Part shown: one piece after another, positions 9,017 through 48,710 of the stretch
Layout: each line of letters opens with the position of its first letter
Numbering within the stretch: the first letter of the stretch is position 1
From: a virus
Direction: 5' to 3' (one strand)
DNA: 64,000 nt
IMG/VR virus record: IMGVR_UViG_3300010430_002753
Location: 1 to 64,000 of that record
Notes under the pieces: generated by a model
What the model was told of the DNA's origin: nothing
Databases searched by the model: none
What the model saw: the letters and a program-made list of their open reading frames with translations, nothing else
Position numbers and translations under genes: made by a program

Positions 9017-9790
9017 TTAAACTTCATCTACTTTATTACTAAGTTGTAACGCTAAAATATAAACACAATTTTCATCATGTTTAATTGAATCATCACTATT
9101 AATATTAATACTTTCACCACAAAATTTACAAATCATTAGATCCGGAGAATCATAATTATATTCAAATCTAAATGGATCTGATGTTACGCCTTCAATCAAT
9201 TTGTTAATTTCTTTGTTTGTAATCATAATAACCTTCTTCCTTTTTAAATAATTTTATTTGAAACGTGGTTTATATTCTTTTATAATAGGTTCTTGGGTAT
9301 ATGTATATTCTATTTTTCCACATATTTTACATTCTCTTGACCATCTTGGCTTTTCTTCATCTCTATATCCCGCATATCTCCAATGAGGATCGGGTCCACA
9401 TCCATCTTGAACACTACCATACCCCACAGAAATAGTTTCTGGATCATATTTAGCTTCTTTAAAATCATGATTACAATGTGCCATTCTTATTTTTTCTTCT
9501 TCTATTTCTCTTTGTAAATCTTTTATTTTTTTATTCATATACCTCTCCTTTTAAATATCCATAGCTGAAATATCACAACAATCTTCACAAATCCAATATT
9601 TATCATAATCTCCATATATTTCAGAATTTAGAGGATTAGCTCTGAATATAACGGGGTTATCTTCTTTAGATGTATATTGGGTTGCTTCATGACCACAATA
9701 TATACATTTGTGTTTAGATTTTTTATCAGACAATATTATTTTTACTTTAGGTCTTTTTTGTTTTTTATTTTTCATAATAACCTTCTTCAT
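9017..9790 (-). other. three small Zn-ribbon-like CDSs (9017-9226, 9254-9538, 9551-9790)
   Basis: CKFCG, CNH..CKICG, CIYCG..CEDC. Confidence 0.6.
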
Positions 9791-37071: not shown

Positions 37072-38612
37072 TTAATATCCATAACTAGCTTTAAAAACAT
37101 TCCATGTTTGACCATTCATATAATCTGTTAATACATCATCACACTTTAATAACTCACATGATAGTTGTTGAACTAGTTTATTTTCTGTTGTAGGAATAAA
37201 ATATTCTGCGGGAGTTACTAAATTTCCTTCTACGTCATATTCTGCCGGTGTTATTATTACATTACCATTCATTAAATTTTCTATATCTTTAGCTATATCG
37301 TTGGCTAATTTAAATACTGTTTTTAGATTAGAATAATCTACACCTATACCGGCTTTAAATGCTTCACCAGCTGTCATATATCCATCAGTTAAATTATAAA
37401 TTTGTCTTGCATGTCCTTGATTTAATTCTTTAGTTGATTTCGTTTTTATTTTTTTGTGAAATCTCATTTTTATAATCCTCTATGGTGATTATTAATCTCT
37501 CCATATTTTGTTAATGGAAATTGTTAAATCTCCTGGTGTTGCTCCTATAGTAGAAGACTTTCCTTGAACTTTAACTATTGGAACAGTTCCTTTATCAAAT
37601 TCATAATAGATATTTTGATCTTCATCTGTTAATGTTTTTGAACTAATTCCATCTATAGCAAATTCAGTTCCACCAGTTTCATCTAATCCAACAACTTGAA
37701 TTAAAGAACCAGTACTATTATTATTATCATAACTAACATATACGCCTAATCTATTATATGTTCTCATATCTATTTCACTTCCAAAATCTACATATGAACC
37801 AGTTGTTAAATCTTGTTCAGACACAATTTCAATAGGGTCTGTATAATGATTCCATATTGGATTTTGATCTACTGTTTTTTGTATATCTAGTCCTTGATCT
37901 ATTGTTCTAGGATTAGCTATTACTGTTGCGACTACAACATCACCAGTATCTAAATTTGGTATTAATTTTGGAACCGTTACAGTGTTACCAGATATTGTTG
38001 CATCTTGTAATGATATTGCTTTACCATTAACTAACAAACCACCTGCTTGTATATTTAAAGTTGCTATTGAAAATGGAGCACCAGAAATAGTAAATGTATT
38101 TGAACCAGATACTGCTGTTACTGTGAAATCCTCCATTGCATTTGTATATATTCCGTATGAACTATTTATCATGTCTATTGCTCCTATCCCTATAATGTCT
38201 TTTATAAATTTTGGAGATAATAAAGTTAAACTGTTTAAAAAAATCATCTTCTTGTCTTCTCCAATTGTATATTTTAGTTGTCAAATAATTTTGGTCCTTT
38301 TTTAATATATCCAACAGCAAAACCTGACGCTAATTGAATATCTGAAAAACTTCCGTATAATACAAATCCAGCTGGAAATGTATATAATGTTATATATGAA
38401 GATAAATTGCTATCTACTTCTTCTTCATCAATTAAACTTGCAAATTCTGAATCATTTATAAATTGTATTGCATAATATCTTTGTGTTGTTTCTATTGGTG
38501 TATTTGCATCAAAATATTTTCTTAATGCTCCTGGACCCATACCAGCATTTAACGTTTCTGCAACTGTATATGGATCTTCATCATATTTAACATTTGGATT
38601 ATATCCATTCAT
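37072..38612 (-). other. three further CDSs of the structural module (37072-37467, 37492-38247, 38274-38612)
   Basis: ORFs with GGAG/GAGG RBS; beta-rich composition. Confidence 0.6.
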
Positions 38613-38702
38613 AATATATATTCTCCTTTAAAACTTATCTTTTCTTCTTTATATTATATAAATATTAAATAAATACATTTTTAATATAATAAGTTTTAAA
38701 CG

Positions 38703-38739
38703 AAAAAAAGCCTATTACTAAATTAATAGTAATAGGCTT
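38703..38739 (-). terminator. intrinsic terminator ending the tRNA array
   Basis: AAGCCTATTACTA/TAGTAATAGGCTT stem plus T tract. Confidence 0.85.
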
Positions 38740-38751
38740 AATATAAAATTT

Positions 38752-38827
38752 TGGAGACTGAGTAGGGAATTGAACCCTAAAATAACAATTTTGCAGACTG
38801 CTCCCTTGACCATTCGGGCACTCAGTC
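38752..38827 (-). tRNA. tRNA-Cys(GCA)
   Basis: Cloverleaf; GCAGT-CTGCAAA-ATTGT; CCA encoded. Confidence 0.9.
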
Positions 38828-38859
38828 ATAATTATGTGTGTAATATTTATAAATAAAAA

Positions 38860-38936
38860 TGGGGTGAAGGAGGAGGCTTGAACTCCCATATGCTGGATCC
38901 ACAATCCAGTGCTTTACCAATTAAGCTACCTACACC
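38860..38936 (-). tRNA. tRNA-His(GTG) with encoded G-1
   Basis: CTGGA-TTGTGGA-TCCAG; extra 5' G opposite C73; CCA. Confidence 0.9.
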
Positions 38937-38943
38937 ATAAAAG

Positions 38944-39030
38944 TACCTCTGACAGGGGTCGAACCTGTACGCTCCATTACAGAACCCTGGATTCTAAGTC
39001 CAGGATGACTACCAATTCCAACACAGAGGC
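38944..39030 (-). tRNA. tRNA-Leu(TAG)
   Basis: CTGGA-CTTAGAA-TCCAG; long variable arm; no encoded CCA. Confidence 0.9.
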
Positions 39031-39091
39031 GTATATAAAAAATTTATTTTGTTTATGAATCATAACTTTCTTTTTGAAGCATTTTTACATC

Positions 39092-39331
39092 TTACTGCTT
39101 AAATAATATATCATCCATAATATCTAATATTTCTTGTTTGAATATTGTCCATACTTGTATATAAGGAATATAATATTTTTCATACCTTTGTTTAGAATAA
39201 TTTGCGGTATTTTCTTTGTAACTTTCTAAATGAATATCTATTAATTGGATTAAATGATTTAATTTACATATACTTAATTTTTTTAATTTTGATATTCTTT
39301 TAGGGTTTACACGTAATTTTATGATATCCAT
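39092..39331 (-). CDS. hypothetical protein
   Basis: ORF with AGGT RBS. Confidence 0.55.
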   Translation of the reverse strand: MDIIKLRVNPKRISKLKKLSICKLNHLIQLIDIHLESYKENTANYSKQRYEKYYIPYIQVWTIFKQEILDIMDDILFKQ

Positions 39332-39340
39332 AAATTATAC

Positions 39341-40147
39341 CTACTTATATAATTTTAAAAATTTAAAAAATTTTGGCCATTCTCTTCTAGGTTTCAATAC
39401 TAATATAACTTCTTTCTTATCGAATTGTAATTCAGTAATTACAAACCAATCATCGCCAAAAGTTTTTGCTTTTTCAAATTGTTCTTCAGTTACTTTACAA
39501 GTAACTTTTCTAAATGAATCAGAATACCACTCTTGCATAATAGGATCACTATATTCTGGCCAATGTTTATTAATGGCACATCCAGCATGAGTAGCACTAT
39601 TAATTGAATGTCCAACATCTACCCAATCTTTAATTAAAACATACATTTTTAAAGGCTGTACAGCATTTTTATTGTCGTCTGTTATTTTCATACAATGATT
39701 CCAAGCTTCTACTGTATATCTATTTCCTTCTAAATAATTATTATAATCTGTTTTAGCGAATGCAATACATGAGTTATCGTCATTAATATGAATAACGTAT
39801 CTTTTTTGACTTTTAATATATTCATTATTCCATACATGCATTAATTTAACATCTGTTTTAAATGTTTTATTATTTTTTAATTTCATATTATTTTCCAATA
39901 GTTCTTGAGATTTTTCATAATCATAACTAATATACCAATTTGGATAAAAACATGGTTCGTGTTTAGAATTAAAAATTTTAGTTACTGTTTCCCAATAACT
40001 TTCTTCTTGTTCTAACTTTTCATCATTATGCCATATCCTAAATATATCTTCAACTTCACAATATTCAACACCAATACATAGATCTGGATAAATATTTTTA
40101 ATTTCTTCTATACCATCATTAATACCGTTTATTAATTTATGATCCAT
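39341..40147 (-). CDS. fusion protein with C-terminal peptidyl-tRNA hydrolase (Pth2-like) domain
   Basis: KMYVLIK...GHSINSATHA...EW...FRKVTCKV...LVLKP. Confidence 0.7.
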   Translation of the reverse strand: MDHKLINGINDGIEEIKNIYPDLCIGVEYCEVEDIFRIWHNDEKLEQEESYWETVTKIFNSKHEPCFYPNWYISYDYEKSQELLENNMKLKNNKTFKTDVKLMHVWNNEYIKSQKRYVIHINDDNSCIAFAKTDYNNYLEGNRYTVEAWNHCMKITDDNKNAVQPLKMYVLIKDWVDVGHSINSATHAGCAINKHWPEYSDPIMQEWYSDSFRKVTCKVTEEQFEKAKTFGDDWFVITELQFDKKEVILVLKPRREWPKFFKFLKLYK

Positions 40148-40284
40148 TATAATTCCTTATTCAACTTCTATTAATTCAAAATTAGCAAAATCATATATTT
40201 TATTATTTAACATAAAGAATTTAAAATTAAATTCATTAATATTATATTCATATTAACCTCTATTATAAATTTTTTATTATAAAC

Positions 40285-40317
40285 ATTATATTGTATAATT
40301 AAATAAATGTCAACTAA
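40285..40317 (-). promoter_or_regulatory. sigma70-like promoter
   Basis: TAG-TTGACA-17-TATAAT. Confidence 0.75.
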
Positions 40318-40321
40318 TAAA

Positions 40322-40741
40322 TTATATTTTTTTATTTAATAATCCTTCATATACTTTTCTATAACATAACATATTAGGAATATATCTACTATTATTTCCA
40401 AAATATTCTGAATCATCACCATTAAAATAATTAGATATAGCTGCAGCAACACCAGAACTTCTAGAAATTCCAGCATCACAAGATATAATAAAATCTTTAT
40501 TTATATTACTTAAAATAAATTCTATAATACGATCAACATCATTATCAGAAATTGTATTATATTTATCTATTTTTTCTTCTATATCATAAAATCTTAAATA
40601 TATTATATCACATCTATTTTCATTTTTAAATTCAGTAAACATAGATGGATCTTGTATTGATATAATACAAACATCTTTATCTATTTGTTTATTAAATAAC
40701 TTATTCTGCAAATCTAATTTTGATAAAACTTTTATATTCAT
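40322..40741 (-). CDS. CX5R (tyrosine/dual-specificity) phosphatase-like protein
   Basis: IISIQD, LRFYDI, SCDAGISRS, PN. Confidence 0.8.
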   Translation of the reverse strand: MNIKVLSKLDLQNKLFNKQIDKDVCIISIQDPSMFTEFKNENRCDIIYLRFYDIEEKIDKYNTISDNDVDRIIEFILSNINKDFIISCDAGISRSSGVAAAISNYFNGDDSEYFGNNSRYIPNMLCYRKVYEGLLNKKI

Positions 40742-40767
40742 TAATTATACCTCCATAACTTAAAAAA

Positions 40768-40844
40768 TGGTGGGCCTTGTTGGACTCGAACCAACGACTT
40801 CCTGTTTATGAGACAGGATTTCTAACCAACTGAAATAAAGGCCC
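40768..40844 (-). tRNA. tRNA with CAT anticodon, probably Ile2 (lysidine type)
   Basis: GGGCCTT acceptor; CCTGT-CTCATAA-ACAGG; CCA. Confidence 0.8.
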
Positions 40845-40845
40845 G

Positions 40846-40918
40846 CTTCCCAGACAGGATTTGAACCTGCAACAATTGGATTAGAAATCCAATGCTCATC
40901 CACTTGAGCTTCTGGGAT
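40846..40918 (-). tRNA. tRNA-Arg(TCT)
   Basis: TTGGA-TTTCTAA-TCCAA; A1/A72 mismatch; no CCA. Confidence 0.8.
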
Positions 40919-41025
40919 ATAAAAATAAAAGAAGATAATTTAGTAGTCCAAAATATCTTCAAGAACACTTATCAATTTGAGCTTCATTTTATAGAGAGGC
41001 TTAATAAGTTTATTTTATAGTAAAA

Positions 41026-41113
41026 TGGCGGAGATTATAGGACTCGAACCTATATATCCTTTTCAGAACGCTAGATTAGCAATCTAGTGCAATACCAATT
41101 ATGCGAAATCTCC
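41026..41113 (-). tRNA. tRNA-Ser(GCT)
   Basis: CTAGA-TTGCTAA-TCTAG; long variable arm; GCCA. Confidence 0.9.
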
Positions 41114-41119
41114 AAAAAT

Positions 41120-41443
41120 TTATTTATTTTTTATAAATATTCTTAAACATTCTTTTTTCCAATCAAATCCCCATTGTCGAATACCAATTATGTTAGATCT
41201 TAAGTCTTCAAGTATATTATTTATTTCATATTTTTCTGTTTTTTCTAGTTTGCTATTATTAATAATATTTTGAATTTTATTTATTGACGGACATTGCATT
41301 TGTGGAGATTCATCTATATTAAAATAATTATCTATATTAGGTTTTTTACCAATAATCTTATAAAAATTATCTCTTAATGTTTTATAATATATTATTGAAT
41401 TATATCTAAGTATTTTAACAAATAATCGTTTTAAATATTTCAT
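41120..41443 (-). CDS. hypothetical protein
   Basis: Start set to the ATG after GGAG (the longer ORF overlaps tRNA-Ser). Confidence 0.6.
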   Translation of the reverse strand: MKYLKRLFVKILRYNSIIYYKTLRDNFYKIIGKKPNIDNYFNIDESPQMQCPSINKIQNIINNSKLEKTEKYEINNILEDLRSNIIGIRQWGFDWKKECLRIFIKNK

Positions 41444-41460
41444 ATATCTCCTATTAAAAA

Positions 41461-41546
41461 TGGCAGAGAAGGTGGGATTCGAACCCACGGAGCCGTCACT
41501 CACTGGTTTTCAAAACCAGCTCCTTAAACCACTCGGACACTTCTCT
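41461..41546 (-). tRNA. tRNA-Ser(TGA)
   Basis: CTGGT-TTTGAAA-ACCAG; GCCA. Confidence 0.9.
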
Positions 41547-41561
41547 ATATTAAAAATTTGT

Positions 41562-41758
41562 TTTCTTTTAGATAATGATCTATCATAACAAATATAATTT
41601 AACATCTAATTCTACTAGTTTAAATTAGACTTTATATTTACAAGAATCTACACAACTCTCTTATCAAGATATTGGCTACGCCAGTTTTTGGTCTATTATA
41701 TTAATTACTCTAGAAATAAATTAATACGATATTTTTCAAGATCATTATCTAAAAGAAA
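41562..41758 (-). ncRNA. unidentified ~197-nt structured RNA
   Basis: Perfect 20-bp terminal inverted repeat TTTCTTTTAGATAATGATCT plus internal hairpins; lies between two tRNAs; no ORF in the track. Confidence 0.65.
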
Positions 41759-41759
41759 T

Positions 41760-41835
41760 TGGTGGAGCTGGTCGGACTTGAACCGACGGCCTTCTGCTTG
41801 CAAAGCAGACACTCTTCCAACTGAGTTACAACCCC
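41760..41835 (-). tRNA. tRNA-Ala(TGC)
   Basis: TCTGC-TTTGCAA-GCAGA; G3:U70; CCA. Confidence 0.92.
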
Positions 41836-41843
41836 ATTTTAAT

Positions 41844-41984
41844 TTAATCATTTAAATTTTGTTTTAAATATTTACGTAAAGATTTTCTACCTTTTTTCTT
41901 AAACCAACGTTTATTCTTTGTATGACATTCATCTGGATGCGCTGGTCTTTTTCTTGAATATAATTTCTTTGTCGATTTCTTCAT
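41844..41984 (-). CDS. 46-aa basic protein (not in the ORF track)
   Basis: GGAAGG RBS; MKKSTKKLYSRKRPAHPDECHTKNKRWFKKKGRKSLRKYLKQNLND. Confidence 0.6.
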   Translation of the reverse strand: MKKSTKKLYSRKRPAHPDECHTKNKRWFKKKGRKSLRKYLKQNLND

Positions 41985-41996
41985 AATATAACCTTC

Positions 41997-42733
41997 CTAT
42001 AAATCAAATTGTTTATAATATTTTTCGTCAGACATACTTATTAAATATCTAATTTCTTTATTTACTTGTTGCAATTTAATAATATATTCTGATTCTTTCT
42101 CCCAAAATGAATTTGAAAGGTGTTTTGTTTTAGAATCTTTTACAGACTGTTTAAGTGATTCTAACAATTCTTTTGTTCTTTTCATTAATAATTTCCTTAT
42201 TTTTTATAACTAATTCTAAAGCTATAACATATTATGGAAGAATAATCAAAAAGACTATTTACGGCAGATCTGTTTAACATTTCATTAATCAATTTATGCC
42301 TTGATATTTTTTCTTTATCATATAAATGACTCCATAATAAACATACATTATTTATATGTATTAGACCCTCAACTCTTTCATCGTTGGAAGGGATTTTATC
42401 TAGTTCATATATTAGATTATTATTTTTGAAATACTTATTCAATAATACATTTACAACTACATGATACTCTTGATATCCACCACCTACTGTTATGTTAAGA
42501 AACATGCATTTATCTTTATTAGCTTTTAGTTGATTTATCATATCTAAAGTATCTAACACTTCATAAAGAACATATTGGTTACTTTCAATAATAGATAAAA
42601 ACTCTTTTTCTATATCTGAGATTTCAGCACTTAGTGTTGATTTATACTCTATTTCTTTTTGTATTCTCTGGTTTTCCATTATTGTAGATATATTAAAATT
42701 TCTGTTGAGTAAAAGTAATGGCATTGCAAACAT
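41997..42733 (-). other. two hypothetical CDSs (41997-42185, 42197-42733)
   Basis: ORFs with RBS inside the tRNA array. Confidence 0.6.
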
Positions 42734-42771
42734 TTCAAGCTCCTATTTTGGACAAATTGTCAATATGAAAA

Positions 42772-42847
42772 TGGAGCGAACAGAGGGACTCAAACCCTCA
42801 ACCAGTAGATTGGAAATCTACCGTTCTATCAATTGAACTATGCTCGC
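42772..42847 (-). tRNA. tRNA-Gly(TCC)
   Basis: GTAGA-TTTCCAA-TCTAC; TCCA. Confidence 0.9.
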
Positions 42848-42861
42848 ATAAAATTTAAGAG

Positions 42862-42933
42862 TAGAAAGAATAAGACTTGAACTTATAATATTGGTTCTTC
42901 AAACCAAGGTGTTACCAATTACACTATCTCTCC
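42862..42933 (-). tRNA. tRNA-Phe(GAA)
   Basis: TTGGT-TTGAAGA-ACCAA; no CCA. Confidence 0.8.
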
Positions 42934-42945
42934 AAATGTTTATTA

Positions 42946-43251
42946 TTATAAATAATCTCTTAAATCTATTCCACTACATAAATTATAATAATGATAAATT
43001 TGTTCACCTACGGATTTATAAAGTCTATAATCTTGTTCTTGTGAATGATCAGTTAATTCTAATGTTCTATTGTTATGAGCTTTATTATCAAATATTTTAG
43101 CAAATTCTTTTAAAGTATCATTATTTAATTCAATATTTTGATTATTATTAATAACTTCAATTGCTTTTTTAATACCTTCAATAATTCCCTTTTGTCTATA
43201 CTCTTCATATTTATCAAGATACTCGCATCTTTGACTAAATGTAACGTCCAT
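42946..43251 (-). CDS. hypothetical protein
   Basis: GGAGG RBS. Confidence 0.65.
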   Translation of the reverse strand: MDVTFSQRCEYLDKYEEYRQKGIIEGIKKAIEVINNNQNIELNNDTLKEFAKIFDNKAHNNRTLELTDHSQEQDYRLYKSVGEQIYHYYNLCSGIDLRDYL

Positions 43252-43422
43252 AAAACCTCCATTAGTTAAAAAATGTCTCCAACATTTGGACTGTTTACCA
43301 CTCTTATGGTTATCTATACGCAGAGTATATAGAAGAGTTTGTTCTTATAAGATTAATCAAATTTAAGGAATTTAAACCTATTGCTTGATTAAACAGAGTA
43401 TCAATATTGATATTTTAAATTT

Positions 43423-43508
43423 TGGTGGCACCACTAGGAATCGAACCTAGAAACCTCTCGGTTACGGATTTACAATCCGCTGAGTTCACCATACTACTCA
43501 ATGATGCC
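43423..43508 (-). tRNA. tRNA-Tyr(GTA)
   Basis: GCGGA-TTGTAAA-TCCGT; long variable arm; ACCA. Confidence 0.9.
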
Positions 43509-43515
43509 GTTAAAA

Positions 43516-43605
43516 TGGTGGGAAGTTGTGGAATCTAACCACAATACCTAAATAGGAGCGGGTGCACATTATCGCTTGAGATAACAATATACTCAATACC
43601 TTCCC
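43516..43605 (-). ncRNA. tRNA-like RNA with no canonical anticodon arm
   Basis: GGGAAG/CTTCCC-ACCA acceptor; D, variable and T hairpins; anticodon arm is only GCG/CGC around 12 nt. Confidence 0.7.
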
Positions 43606-43610
43606 AAAAA

Positions 43611-43689
43611 TGGCCAGGCGTATGGGATTTGAACCCATGATCTCTACCGTGACAGGGTAGCGTCATAAACCAAACTAGACTAACGCCCG
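43611..43689 (-). tRNA. tRNA-Asp(GTC)
   Basis: CTACC-CTGTCAC-GGTAG; GCCA. Confidence 0.9.
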
Positions 43690-43721
43690 ATTAAAATCAT
43701 TTAATAAAAAATTAATAAAAA

Positions 43722-43800
43722 TGGTTGGGTAGCTCAGATTTGAACTGAGGATTTGTTGGTCCCAAACCAACCGTCATAGACCTAACTAGACCACTACCCA
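43722..43800 (-). tRNA. tRNA-Pro(TGG)
   Basis: GTTGG-TTTGGGA-CCAAC; ACCA. Confidence 0.9.
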
Positions 43801-43819
43801 ATAAAAATTTAATATAAAG

Positions 43820-43892
43820 CAGACCATAAAGGACTTGAACCCTTATCTCAGGATTTGGAATCCCACATTCTAGCCAATTGAACTAATGATCT
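43820..43892 (-). tRNA. tRNA-Trp(CCA)
   Basis: GGGA-TTCCAAA-TCCT; no encoded CCA end. Confidence 0.8.
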
Positions 43893-43899
43893 ATAAAAA

Positions 43900-43984
43900 T
43901 GGTGATCCCAGTTGGACTCGAACCAACGCTGTCAAAGACTCCTGCTTAAAAGGCAGGTGCGTTACCAACTACGCGTATAGGATC
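43900..43984 (-). tRNA. tRNA-Lys(TTT) with an atypical long variable arm
   Basis: CCTGC-CTTTTAA-GCAGG followed by 13-nt AGTCTTTGACAGC; ACCA. Confidence 0.85.
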
Positions 43985-43986
43985 AT

Positions 43987-44030
43987 TTATTTAAATTAAT
44001 TTATAAATTAAAATAAATTAATTTAAATAA
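43987..44030. repeat. 44-nt AT-rich palindromic hairpin, copy 1
   Basis: TTATTTAAATTAATTTA-N10-TAAATTAATTTAAATAA. Confidence 0.7.
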
Positions 44031-44505
44031 AGATCTCAGGTTTAAGGATTTTCGACCCAGAGATCTGAGTATCTCCATGCTATTAGATTGATCAATCTGA
44101 TAAGTTCTTATAGTGTGTTTTACAGCAGAACTTATTAATGTTCTTAAATTTGCAATGCTATTTCATTAATAGAGTTTGTTACGTTTCTATTAATAGGCAT
44201 ATATTTTCTATTGCTAATTCCTGAAACTGTTCACACAATAACCTGACCAATAGAATCAATGTTTGCGTCAATCCAACTCAAAGTAACAATACTGAGTTAG
44301 TTATCTCATTGCCTCGCCTTTCCGAGTTAAAAATTGTAACTGGCACGAAAGAATGCTTTAATCTATATTAAGCTATCAATTAAATTATTTGAATAAACAA
44401 ACTTTTCAATTTTGTGGGATTAGATAATCACCCATATCTTTCTTCGTGAGAGTTATTTCTTTCGAGTCAGCCAACTAGAACTAGTCTAGGATGAGCTTCG
44501 ATACT
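44031..44505 (-). ncRNA. unidentified ~475-nt multi-helix structured RNA
   Basis: No ORF in the track, visibly higher GC, more than 10 visible helices, AGTATC/GATACT closing stem; between tRNA-Glu and tRNA-Lys. Confidence 0.7.
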
Positions 44506-44518
44506 TTTTAAATAAAAA

Positions 44519-44597
44519 TGGAATCGCAGATGGGAATCGAACCCACAAACTTTACCGTGAAAGGGTAATGACTCTAACCTAATTCGTCTACTGCGAC
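44519..44597 (-). tRNA. tRNA-Glu(TTC)
   Basis: TTACC-CTTTCAC-GGTAA; CCA. Confidence 0.9.
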
Positions 44598-44600
44598 ATA

Positions 44601-44681
44601 AAAATATTTCAATATTAATATCTAATAAAACATTTATAGTTGTATTAGCATTTATAATTATCTTCCATATTGAAATATTTT
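44601..44681 (-). ncRNA. 81-nt rod-like hairpin between tRNAs
   Basis: 15-bp inverted repeat AAAATATTTCAATAT plus inner CTAATA/TATTAG stem. Confidence 0.45.
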
Positions 44682-44685
44682 AAAA

Positions 44686-44760
44686 TGGTAGCGGAGATGG
44701 AATTCGAATCCATATATCACGGGATATGAACCCGTTGAGTTGCCAGTACTCTACTCCGCT
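44686..44760 (-). tRNA. initiator tRNA-fMet(CAT)
   Basis: ACGGG-TTCATAT-CCCGT (three G-C pairs); A1-U72; ACCA. Confidence 0.85.
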
Positions 44761-44766
44761 ATAAAA

Positions 44767-44842
44767 TGGCTAACCAGGTGGGACTTGGACCCACATACTT
44801 TCGATTAACAGTCGAACGCTAAACCAATTTAGCTACTGGTCA
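44767..44842 (-). tRNA. tRNA-Asn(GTT)
   Basis: TTCGA-CTGTTAA-TCGAA; GCCA. Confidence 0.9.
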
Positions 44843-44848
44843 ATAAAA

Positions 44849-44934
44849 TGGTATTCCCAATAGGACTTGAACCTATACACCATAAAGATACAAGATCTTA
44901 AATCTTGTGTGCCTACCAATTACACCATGGGAAC
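44849..44934 (-). tRNA. tRNA-Leu(TAA)
   Basis: CAAGA-TTTAAGA-TCTTG; long variable arm; ACCA. Confidence 0.9.
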
Positions 44935-44944
44935 ATAAAAATAT

Positions 44945-44988
44945 TTATTTAAATTAATCTACAAATTAAAATAAATTAATTTGAATAA
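44945..44988. repeat. 44-nt AT-rich palindromic hairpin, copy 2
   Basis: Three differences from 43987-44030. Confidence 0.7.
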
Positions 44989-44990
44989 AA

Positions 44991-45067
44991 TGGAGCCAAA
45001 TCTCGGACTCAAACCGAGGACCCGATGCTTACAAGGCAACTGCTCTAATCAACTGAGCTAATTTGGC
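44991..45067 (-). tRNA. tRNA-Thr(TGT)
   Basis: TGC-CTTGTAA-GCA; GCCAAAT acceptor; TCCA. Confidence 0.88.
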
Positions 45068-45078
45068 ATTAAATATAT

Positions 45079-45165
45079 TATTTGCGGTAGGTAGGATTCG
45101 AACCTACGATACTTTCATTTGTATGAATGTGTTTTCCTTTTACACTATCTATAGTTCCGCAAATA
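45079..45165 (-). ncRNA. aberrant tRNA-like RNA (possibly Val-TAC derived)
   Basis: Perfect T arm GTAGG-TTCGAAT-CCTAC and D arm; shrunken anticodon loop; insertion in the acceptor 5' strand. Confidence 0.65.
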
Positions 45166-45171
45166 AAAAAG

Positions 45172-45242
45172 TTAGTCTGTGTAGAATCGAACTACAACTA
45201 TTAGGACCAAAACCTAATGCACTACCATTATGCAACAGACCA
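45172..45242 (-). tRNA. tRNA-Gln(TTG)
   Basis: TTAGG-TTTTGGT-CCTAA; U1-A72; no CCA. Confidence 0.85.
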
Positions 45243-45395
45243 TCAAAAAATATAAAGCAATAGGAATTATTCACATGTTTCTATGACTTTGAACTGCGTC
45301 AAATGATTTTTTCAATAATTCTAAACCAATATTTTTACTATTACTATAATTTATTTTAAATTATTCACAAATATTACACATCTATGCTTTTGTTT

Positions 45396-45465
45396 AAGAT
45401 CTAATTTTTAATTTCTTAGTCATTATAATTTGATTAAAGATTCTGTTAACTAAAAAATTATTTTT
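45396..45465 (-). promoter_or_regulatory. tRNA-array promoter (copy of a ~70-bp direct repeat)
   Basis: TTAACA-16-TATAAT; near-identical to 45748-45817. Confidence 0.7.
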
Positions 45466-45475
45466 TTTTTACAAT

Positions 45476-45503
45476 AAAAAAAGGAGGTTTTTTCAACCTC
45501 CTT
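45476..45503 (-). terminator. intrinsic terminator
   Basis: AAGGAGGTT/AACCTCCTT stem plus T tract. Confidence 0.8.
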
Positions 45504-45747
45504 ATATATAATTTTGTTTATTAATTTTTATATTTTTAGAGGTATTTAAATATATCATGATCAAATTTGGCAGGTGTATTTACACAATTAGATTCACTAG
45601 TATATAATGATTGATAACTTGTTCTACCAACTAATTCTTTGAGTGTAAGTCCTATTAAATTTTGCCAAACGTTCATGATTTTTATTTCCTTTATTTTTTT
45701 CATTCTAATATAAATATATGAAAAAAATATTTTTATACATTTTTTTA

Positions 45748-45817
45748 AAGATCTAATTTTTAATTTCTTAATCATTATAATTTGATTAAAGATTCTGTCA
45801 ACTAAAAAATTATTTTT
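45748..45817 (-). promoter_or_regulatory. promoter (copy of a ~70-bp direct repeat)
   Basis: TTGACA-16-TATAAT. Confidence 0.8.
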
Positions 45818-46172
45818 TATTTAATAATTTTAAATTTCTATTAATATTTCTAAATTTAATAACTTCTGGGCGTTTATAGAACTCTTCTTTTGAATAACTT
45901 TTACCATTGATATAATAATATGCATGTTCTATTTCTCCAGATCTATTATACCAAATCATTGCTGGTCCATTTAATCGGTGTCGTTTTCTATTTATACAAT
46001 ATTGCATAGCTTCTATTTTGCCAGATTTATAATATTTAATCTCTGCGGGACCATATAAATTGTGAATATAATCATTTTTGTTATAATACATATCATGCAT
46101 AATTTTAGTATCTTTATCATCATAATATACAATTCTTCTGTAATTACCATTTTCTAATTCAATTCTTTTCAT
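45810..46172 (-). CDS. HRxxGPA-repeat protein with C-terminal tag
   Basis: HNLYGPA, HRLNGPA; ends NINRNLKLLNKK. Confidence 0.85.
   Translation of the reverse strand: MKRIELENGNYRRIVYYDDKDTKIMHDMYYNKNDYIHNLYGPAEIKYYKSGKIEAMQYCINRKRHRLNGPAMIWYNRSGEIEHAYYYINGKSYSKEEFYKRPEVIKFRNINRNLKLLNKK

Positions 46173-47081: not shown

Positions 47082-48710
<1,629 letters not shown>

Follow-up and report, generated by a model that had tools for sequence, protein, structure and literature searches.

To our knowledge, non-tRNA RNAs recur among the tRNA genes of large phages, as in the case of RNAC and RNAD of T4 and of the GOLLD and ROOL RNAs, and we know of no function for any of these. The two T4 RNAs are only ~120-140 nt in length. 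The fold of GOLLD rests on covariation, and the multi-pseudoknot fold of ROOL is supported by covariation as well as by cryo-EM. GOLLD also reportedly occurs in the tRNA arrays of Mycobacterium, an observation of 2020 that is attributed to Morgado and colleagues. RNAC and RNAD are described as small non-tRNA RNAs that are transcribed from the tRNA region and whose role is unknown (PMC3014915, PMC9697503). GOLLD and ROOL are described in a preprint as large RNAs of phages and prophages that are often found near tRNA islands; GOLLD sometimes carries tRNAs inside it and many of its members exceed 800 nt, and the function of ROOL is given there as unknown (bioRxiv 10.1101/2024.12.08.627333).

The locus discussed here belongs to an IMG/VR virus record of 81,271 bp (24% G+C; CheckV completeness 33%), which is represented in metagenomic DNA runs (marine sediment and sediment). 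The window, by which is meant the whole stretch of DNA that was analysed, comprises bases 1-64000 of this record and has a G+C content of 23.9%. A greedy set of 113 ORFs of at least 50 aa occupies 57,250 of its 64,000 nt (~89% of window bases), with 110 of the 113 on the minus strand. ARAGORN places 21 tRNA genes between positions 38752 and 45242, all of them on the minus strand, and each of the 21 is confirmed by Rfam. Small ORFs are scattered between the tRNAs of the array, and one array protein, of 268 aa, possesses a C-terminal domain weakly similar to Pth2 peptidyl-tRNA hydrolases. Genes for a CCA-adding enzyme, GroEL and ribonucleotide reductase are found near the array. A 3' end formed by CCA and a U-rich (UUUU) context is common to 14 tRNAs or tRNA-like elements (repeat family D1), including a tRNA-like copy at 43511-43544; a further tRNA-like match, below threshold at 25 bits, was found at 45091-45147 by Rfam at E<=5 across 38500-46000.

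The candidate RNA (44031-44505, minus strand) is flanked by two complete members of this array. Upstream lies tRNA-Glu(UUC) (44519-44597, minus strand), which was called by ARAGORN, scores 56 bits with the Rfam tRNA model and has an encoded CCA; a 13-nt A/U spacer (44506-44518) separates this CCA from the candidate. Downstream, at a distance of 46 nt, is tRNA-Lys(UUU) (43900-43984, minus strand), likewise called by ARAGORN and scoring 61.6 bits. The position of the candidate in a tRNA operon matches that of RNAC and RNAD, which the T4 sources place among the tRNA genes of a lytic phage, and its location within the 21-tRNA array of this IMG/VR virus record resembles the setting of GOLLD and ROOL. 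The candidate differs from the T4 RNAs in that blastn with the "distant" setting against 50,697 GenBank phage records, a collection that presumably includes T4, returned matches only to the tRNA parts of the queries. It differs from GOLLD in size, at 475-534 nt as opposed to a length often above 800 nt, and in having no Rfam match, and its fold is a weak single-sequence prediction, in contrast to those of both GOLLD and ROOL.

At the gathering score, Rfam 15 returned tRNAs only. With the threshold relaxed to E<=10, rows other than tRNA scored at best 13-26 bits, against gathering scores of 36-94, for inputs of 801 nt and 496 nt, and at E<=5 across 38500-46000 there was no row for GOLLD, ROOL, OLE, HEARO, RNase P, tmRNA or introns. 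The GOLLD model yielded no row at the gathering score, nor at E<=10 in the 801-nt and 496-nt inputs, and the ROOL model yielded none in any Rfam search of the candidate or the array. The models for tmRNA, RNase P RNA, 6S and SRP RNA were similarly without rows, ARAGORN found no tmRNA, and inside 44031-44505 neither the tRNA model at E<=10 nor ARAGORN detected a tRNA. The Rfam search loses weak matches when more sequence is supplied, as seen with a group I intron in a distantly related locus, L203, that was missed in 1.9 kb and found in 281 nt; for this reason the search was repeated on the candidate alone. Together, the Rfam searches and ARAGORN rule out a known RNA family, and by sequence comparison the candidate appears to belong to none of RNAC/RNAD, GOLLD and ROOL.

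Group I introns of tRNA genes share several features with the candidate, namely their size range, the absence of an ORF, a G+C content above that of an AT-rich host genome and an occurrence in tRNA regions. The intron of L203 is situated inside a tRNA gene, and it served as the positive control (9559-9745; 42.4 bits, E = 8e-10). Under the identical procedure, the Intron_gpI model had no match in the candidate at E<=10 in 496 nt. The candidate also interrupts no gene, as the tRNA-Glu and tRNA-Lys genes on either side are complete and no exon halves are present.

What sets the stretch apart is its length and base composition. The inter-tRNA gap that contains it (43985-44518) measures 534 nt; among the 15 uncovered stretches of at least 100 nt in the window it ranks first in length, followed by one of 272 nt. 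The G+C content of 44031-44505 is 0.324 (0.288 for the gap). Coding sequence has a value of 0.236, all uncovered sequence taken together one of 0.194 and the tRNAs one of 0.461. Among 58,361 tRNA-free windows of 475 nt, this value falls within the top 1.18%, and the other tRNA-free windows with a G+C content this high are all in coding regions. The candidate is itself non-coding. Stop-free runs in the six frames of 43985-44518 reach 53 codons at most. The median for 655 windows of the same length is 125, and only 1.2% of those windows are equally closed (1.2 percentile). No ORF of at least 8 aa preceded by a Shine-Dalgarno (SD) sequence occurs in the stretch on either strand; an SD-like word is present before 59 of the 72 long ORFs. 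Six-frame translations with X at stops produced a single match in PHROGs (E = 0.067, not credible) and a single match in Pfam (E = 0.14, below the cut-off), and no convincing open frame was found in the stretch under table 11, TGA=W or TAG=Q. One minus-strand frame that reaches 99 codons under an alternative code extends across tRNA-Glu. A hidden gene or pseudogene is ruled out by the alternative codes, the six-frame search of PHROGs and Pfam and the scan for SD-preceded mini-ORFs.

The stretch is thus a clear outlier by length and G+C content, and the sole non-coding G+C-rich one in 64 kb. A first-pass annotation, made from the letters of the DNA, had described it as an ORF-free segment of the minus strand, embedded in the tRNA array, richer in G+C than its flanks and without a match to GOLLD, ROOL, RNase P, tmRNA or group II introns. 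This description is borne out by the position and strand of all 21 tRNAs, by the 53-codon maximum together with the alternative codes and the SD scan, by the composition of coding and uncovered sequence and by the Rfam searches, which found no such family. Since uncovered DNA has 19% G+C and 89% of the window lies under ORFs, 0.5 kb of ORF-free sequence with 32% G+C in a tRNA operon is unlikely to be unselected, and from this argument of length and composition an RNA product is the most economical function. This is the strongest evidence for the candidate, and marks the stretch as an outlier of a type that often proves to be a structured RNA. It is proposed here, tentatively and at somewhat less than even confidence, that the stretch gives rise to a processed, discrete non-tRNA RNA of an early tRNA operon, ~440-530 nt in length and with tandem 3' hairpins.

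The predicted core of this RNA spans RNA positions 1-438 (44068-44505, minus strand) and is closed by a 6-bp helix of AGUAUC (44500-44505) with GAUACU (44068-44073), which has a pair probability of 0.95 and is present in both the MFE and centroid structures. A 5' domain (44338-44472, minus strand) is predicted to form through a long-range helix in which GGCUG pairs with CAGUU and CGAAAGA with UCUUUCG, at pair probabilities of 0.64-0.69; the CACGAA/UUCGUG pairing noted in the first pass is an alternative register of the strands of this helix. Within this domain are hairpins at RNA 95-128 (pair probability 0.94-0.98) and RNA 133-151. The 3' part of the core contains a 10-bp A/U-rich hairpin with a 12-nt loop (RNA 311-342; 44164-44195, minus strand; probability 0.93), which includes a perfect 9-bp inverted repeat, and a perfect 9-bp hairpin with an 18-nt loop (RNA 371-406; 44100-44135, minus strand; pair probability 0.80). 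An alternative 8-bp pairing at 44133-44171 joins these two hairpins.

The full stretch has an MFE of -101.2 kcal/mol against -90.8 +/- 6.2 kcal/mol for 100 dinucleotide shuffles (z = -1.68), with five of the 100 shuffles folding as well. When the 3' hairpin is omitted, the minus strand has a z of -1.57 (12 of 150 shuffles as good) and the plus strand one of -1.74 (8 of 150); as these values are nearly equal, folding carries no strand information. Sliding windows of 150 nt in the interior range from -0.1 to -1.5. For calibration within this genome, z ranged from -0.94 to +0.83 in eight 475-nt coding windows and was -1.99 and -4.87 in two tRNA runs; the candidate, at -1.6 to -1.7, is beyond all eight coding controls and weaker than both tRNA runs, though close to the weaker of the two. 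Its folding energy is therefore marginal, at the weak end of true structured RNA. In the ensemble, 20 helices have a pair probability of at least 0.5, and only 19% of bases are at 0.8 or above. The candidate has two perfect hairpins of at least 9 bp, where 400 shuffles gave 0.06 (P = 0.0025). Over its full length the window has 50 of them, a background of 0.37 per 475 nt, and both of those in the candidate contain the self-complementary word ATTAAT; the excess shrinks against the window's own rate and is partly due to repeated ATTAAT palindromes.

The detailed fold of the candidate, as a single-sequence prediction, is weakly supported. All 16 of the complementary word pairs that had been listed as helices in the first-pass annotation are present, but the fold only marginally beats its shuffles. 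"Ornate", as the structure had been called, is a description drawn from complementary words that are short, the sequence being AT-rich and the energy marginal against shuffles and equal on both strands. Shuffled controls had been named there as a check on the folding energy, which lies somewhat below them, with 5 in 100 matching it.

Relatives of the candidate were sought by several routes. Against its own 81-kb record, the stretch matches only itself and is single-copy. In IMG/VR, a 190-aa protein and a 509-aa protein found nothing as baits, GroEL found 80 loci (52-58% identity) and the phrog_1735 protein found 32 loci (33-54% identity). When the RNA was compared by BLAST with 29 of the 32 phrog_1735 loci (all except the short contigs L089, L094 and L104), using their whole records, the best match was 23 nt at E = 0.003, which is noise; among 42 GroEL loci, picked by eye from the 80 as the longer contigs, none had a match in its record at E<=0.001. 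An nhmmer search of 200 loci with the RNA returned none at E<=10. Each of two exact words of the RNA had 0 matches in IMG/VR, as did a 39-nt A/T element from its flank, and the only match in GTDB genomes, 20 nt in a Clostridia MAG contig of 51% G+C, did not extend and was judged to be chance. Using GroEL as bait in JGI metagenomes, the best two loci (L122, 71%; L123, 69%) had only GroEL in common with the phage and contained no tRNAs.

The proteins of the phage are similarly isolated. Among 5.8 billion proteins, the 178-aa array protein matched only itself, and the nearest relative of the 509-aa protein, which is large and structural-like, is 35-43% identical over a partial length. For the 268-aa array protein, Logan assemblies supplied four relatives, including one on a contig of 217,654 bp, and a profile of these relatives led to three distant IMG/VR loci with proteins in common at 41-61% identity. 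The candidate RNA had no match in these three loci. Of the records involved, L202 has one tRNA and L203 has 11; a 452-nt G+C-rich gap in L203, considered as a positional analogue of the candidate, is actually an intron-split tRNA with a small ORF. By these comparisons the phage lineage appears to be an orphan. Complementarity between the candidate and the phage's own genes is at most 14 nt throughout the 81-kb record, and a role as an antisense regulator of phage genes was rejected on this basis. The sequencing runs listed for the stretch include no RNA runs. Three DNA runs, from marine sediment and sediment, have contigs that overlap the stretch in part and are 99-100% identical to it; one of these runs (X3) has three differences in 289 nt. 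The only variant listed by place, 44116 T>C, is in the loop of the perfect 9-bp hairpin, and the contigs thus offer no usable population variation.

That no homologues appear in the collections searched, and that the thermodynamic signal is weak and strand-symmetric, would also be consistent with a functionless spacer, left by the decay of an earlier insertion into the array, be it a run of tRNA genes, a small gene (for a homing endonuclease or otherwise), an intron or foreign DNA with a G+C content of ~32%, and passively transcribed and discarded as the tRNAs are processed. Other degenerate elements do occur in the array (45091-45147, at 25 bits, and 43511-43544), and a G+C content of 0.32, between the 0.461 of tRNAs and the background, is as expected for decayed tRNAs or foreign DNA. 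An unselected remnant, however, should have drifted toward the 0.194 of non-coding DNA, and a window that is 89% under ORFs rarely retains 0.5 kb of junk. Nor is the source of such a remnant apparent, as the tRNA and Intron_gpI models are blank at E<=10 in 496 nt by a procedure that detects the L203 intron, and the six-frame HMM searches contain no credible protein remnant. A decayed spacer is considered rather unlikely, although it is a serious competitor of the proposed RNA.

The strongest structure of the region is situated at its 3' end, and invites a different explanation. The 3'-terminal hairpin (RNA 440-475; 44031-44066, minus strand) has stems of 7 and 4 bp with pair probabilities of 0.97 and 0.83, and windows containing it have z values of -3.1 to -4.3. 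By eye it is a branched 7+4-bp stem followed by 5 U in 8 nt, and together with this U-rich tract it may be terminator-like or act as a 3'-end protector. Directly adjoining it is a perfect inverted repeat (43986-44031), with a 19-bp stem that is all A/T and a loop of 8 nt, which ends 1 nt before tRNA-Lys; 150-nt windows with both the hairpin and this palindrome reach z values of -3.1 to -6.5 on both strands. An imperfect twin of the palindrome fills the spacer between tRNA-Thr and tRNA-Leu (~44937-44990; repeat family D11), the two sharing an exact 19-nt repeat (44005-44023 and 44963-44981).

These hairpins could be cis-acting punctuation of the operon, serving as a terminator, an attenuator or RNase III/E sites that split the array in two. 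The 3' hairpin and its U-tract would then stop or pause transcription, and the A/T palindrome and its twin would be a processing site or a promoter/operator for the downstream tRNAs. The abutment of the palindrome on tRNA-Lys, with a related copy before tRNA-Leu, speaks for such a role, as do the three overlapping inverted repeats of 44100-44195 that permit alternative pairings. Punctuation would explain ~150 nt of the 3' end, however, and leave the 300-nt G+C-rich 5' part unaccounted for; moreover, the 3' hairpin received no call in the terminator scan and the exact palindrome motif occurs only twice in the window. Such a punctuation region is distinctly unlikely, although it too is a genuine competitor of the proposed RNA.

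An element acting at the level of DNA would fit the strand-symmetric fold signal and the perfect A/T palindrome at the flank; it could be an origin of replication, a site of packaging or recombination, or the scar of a mobile element. Against this, the stretch contains no iterons or direct repeats and is single-copy in the 81-kb record, its G+C content is elevated and not reduced, and neither terminal inverted repeats nor a target duplication were observed. This explanation is very improbable. Translation through an unusual genetic code, or into very small proteins, is close to refuted: TGA=W frames of 85 codons (the longest stop-free, plus strand, 44114-44371) and 62 codons (minus strand) do exist, but there is no SD-preceded ORF of at least 8 aa and no family match in any frame, none of the 21 tRNAs is a suppressor according to ARAGORN, and the tiling of 57,250 of the 64,000 nt by table 11 ORFs gives no sign of recoding.

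A discrete RNA of the tRNA operon is the reading that is carried forward, and the arrangement of the operon suggests how it might be made. A sigma-70-like promoter, with TTAACA and TATAAT separated by a 16-nt spacer (11 of 12 positions; 45422-45449, minus strand), is found between a terminator-like hairpin (45503-45481), which it follows closely, and the first tRNA, upstream of which it lies. This hairpin and a strong one of the same kind after the last tRNA (38739-38708) bracket the array, and the terminator scan predicts no terminator between the promoter and the candidate. The promoter is contained in an 84-nt segment that is duplicated 352 nt upstream (twin copy 45740-45823; repeat family D4), and is the likely start of the transcript that bears the candidate. 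Co-transcription with the tRNAs, and release by tRNA processing, are inferred from position. The primary transcript would run from the promoter (45449-45422) through tRNA-Gln to tRNA-Glu and on into the stretch. Maturation of the 3' end of tRNA-Glu within the A/U spacer would set the upstream end of the RNA, and its downstream end would result either from the RNase P cut at the 5' end of tRNA-Lys or, at the 3' hairpins, from termination or a cut by RNase III. The ends may be held together by the 6-bp closing helix and guarded by the 3' hairpins, and selection on the RNA would keep its G+C content above the level of the genome. As for function, it can be suggested with low confidence that the RNA acts in trans on translation or the tRNA module, binding or sequestering a host or phage factor during infection. 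Such a role might, with equally low confidence, parallel that of RNAC and RNAD or of GOLLD and ROOL.

Against a structured RNA stand the weak and strand-symmetric fold signal and the negative outcome of every search for relatives. A stronger form of the proposal, in which the stretch founds a new class of ~0.5-kb structured RNAs, belonging to the tRNA operon of an orphan group of large, AT-rich phages of marine sediment, cut out by tRNA processing and acting during infection on the translation or tRNA apparatus, is unlikely on present evidence. One role for it might be that of a scaffold or decoy, either for a host factor or for a defence that targets tRNAs. If true, this proposal would provide a third type of large tRNA-island RNA beside GOLLD and ROOL. 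At present the locus is a single candidate, and its value is that of a flagged locus. Should the RNA be real, it would add a new family, from an orphan lineage, to the non-tRNA RNAs of phage tRNA clusters, and the extreme base composition of this lineage would make selection for G+C easy to see. Each independent example of this kind sharpens the question of what role such RNAs play in the phage takeover of translation.

The 21 tRNA genes called in the array, which serve 18 amino acids and do not include tRNA-Ile(GAU) or a tRNA for Val, are accompanied on the same strand by a tRNA-like element that lies between tRNA-Thr and tRNA-Gln (window 45091-45147, minus strand). This element covers model positions 8-63 and scores 25 bits, below the gathering score of 29. 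A perfect 19-bp inverted repeat composed entirely of A and T (43986-44031) adjoins the 5' end of tRNA-Lys, and an imperfect, related copy (approximately 44937-44990) occupies the spacer before tRNA-Leu; as an exact 39-nt pattern, the element was not found in IMG/VR. The A/T-rich, 88-nt spacer between tRNA-Met and tRNA-Glu (44598-44685) appears to be closed by a 14-bp inverted repeat, as read by eye from the sequence; the scripted inverted-repeat search was confined to loops of 30 nt or fewer, and this repeat was outside its reach. Folding of the segment containing this spacer gave a better score for the plus strand (z = -3.0) than for the minus strand (z = -1.4).

The tRNA array is preceded by one copy of an 84-nt duplication, and the second copy precedes a 79-aa ORF (45388-45471 and 45740-45823). 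The copies are 94% identical, each contains a near-consensus sigma-70 promoter, and a search of the 81-kb record returned these two copies only.

The array also encloses a gene for a 268-aa protein (39341-40147, minus strand), for which a Pfam search gave no match. Its C-terminal domain of approximately 105 aa is conserved, being common to four Logan proteins and three IMG/VR loci. With a profile of the protein, the best matches in the PDB were weak (E = 0.08 and 0.14); one bears the name peptidyl-tRNA hydrolase and the other is Ta0108, which belongs, like the former, to the Pth2 family. One of the three IMG/VR loci is the distantly related L203 (IMGVR_UViG_3300027896_000041), where a tRNA gene (L203:9537-9793) is interrupted in its anticodon loop by an insert of approximately 190 nt. 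Against the Rfam model Intron_gpI, this insert scored 42.4 bits (E = 8e-10), which is below the gathering score of 50. The split tRNA was not called by ARAGORN, and an Rfam search over the surrounding 1.9 kb did not detect the intron.

Beyond the array, the phage encodes a GroEL (47082-48704, minus strand) that shares 69-71% identity with the GroELs of its two best matches in JGI metagenomes, both on low-G+C contigs. Nothing besides GroEL is common to the phage and these contigs, which may hint at the lineage of the donor or of the host.
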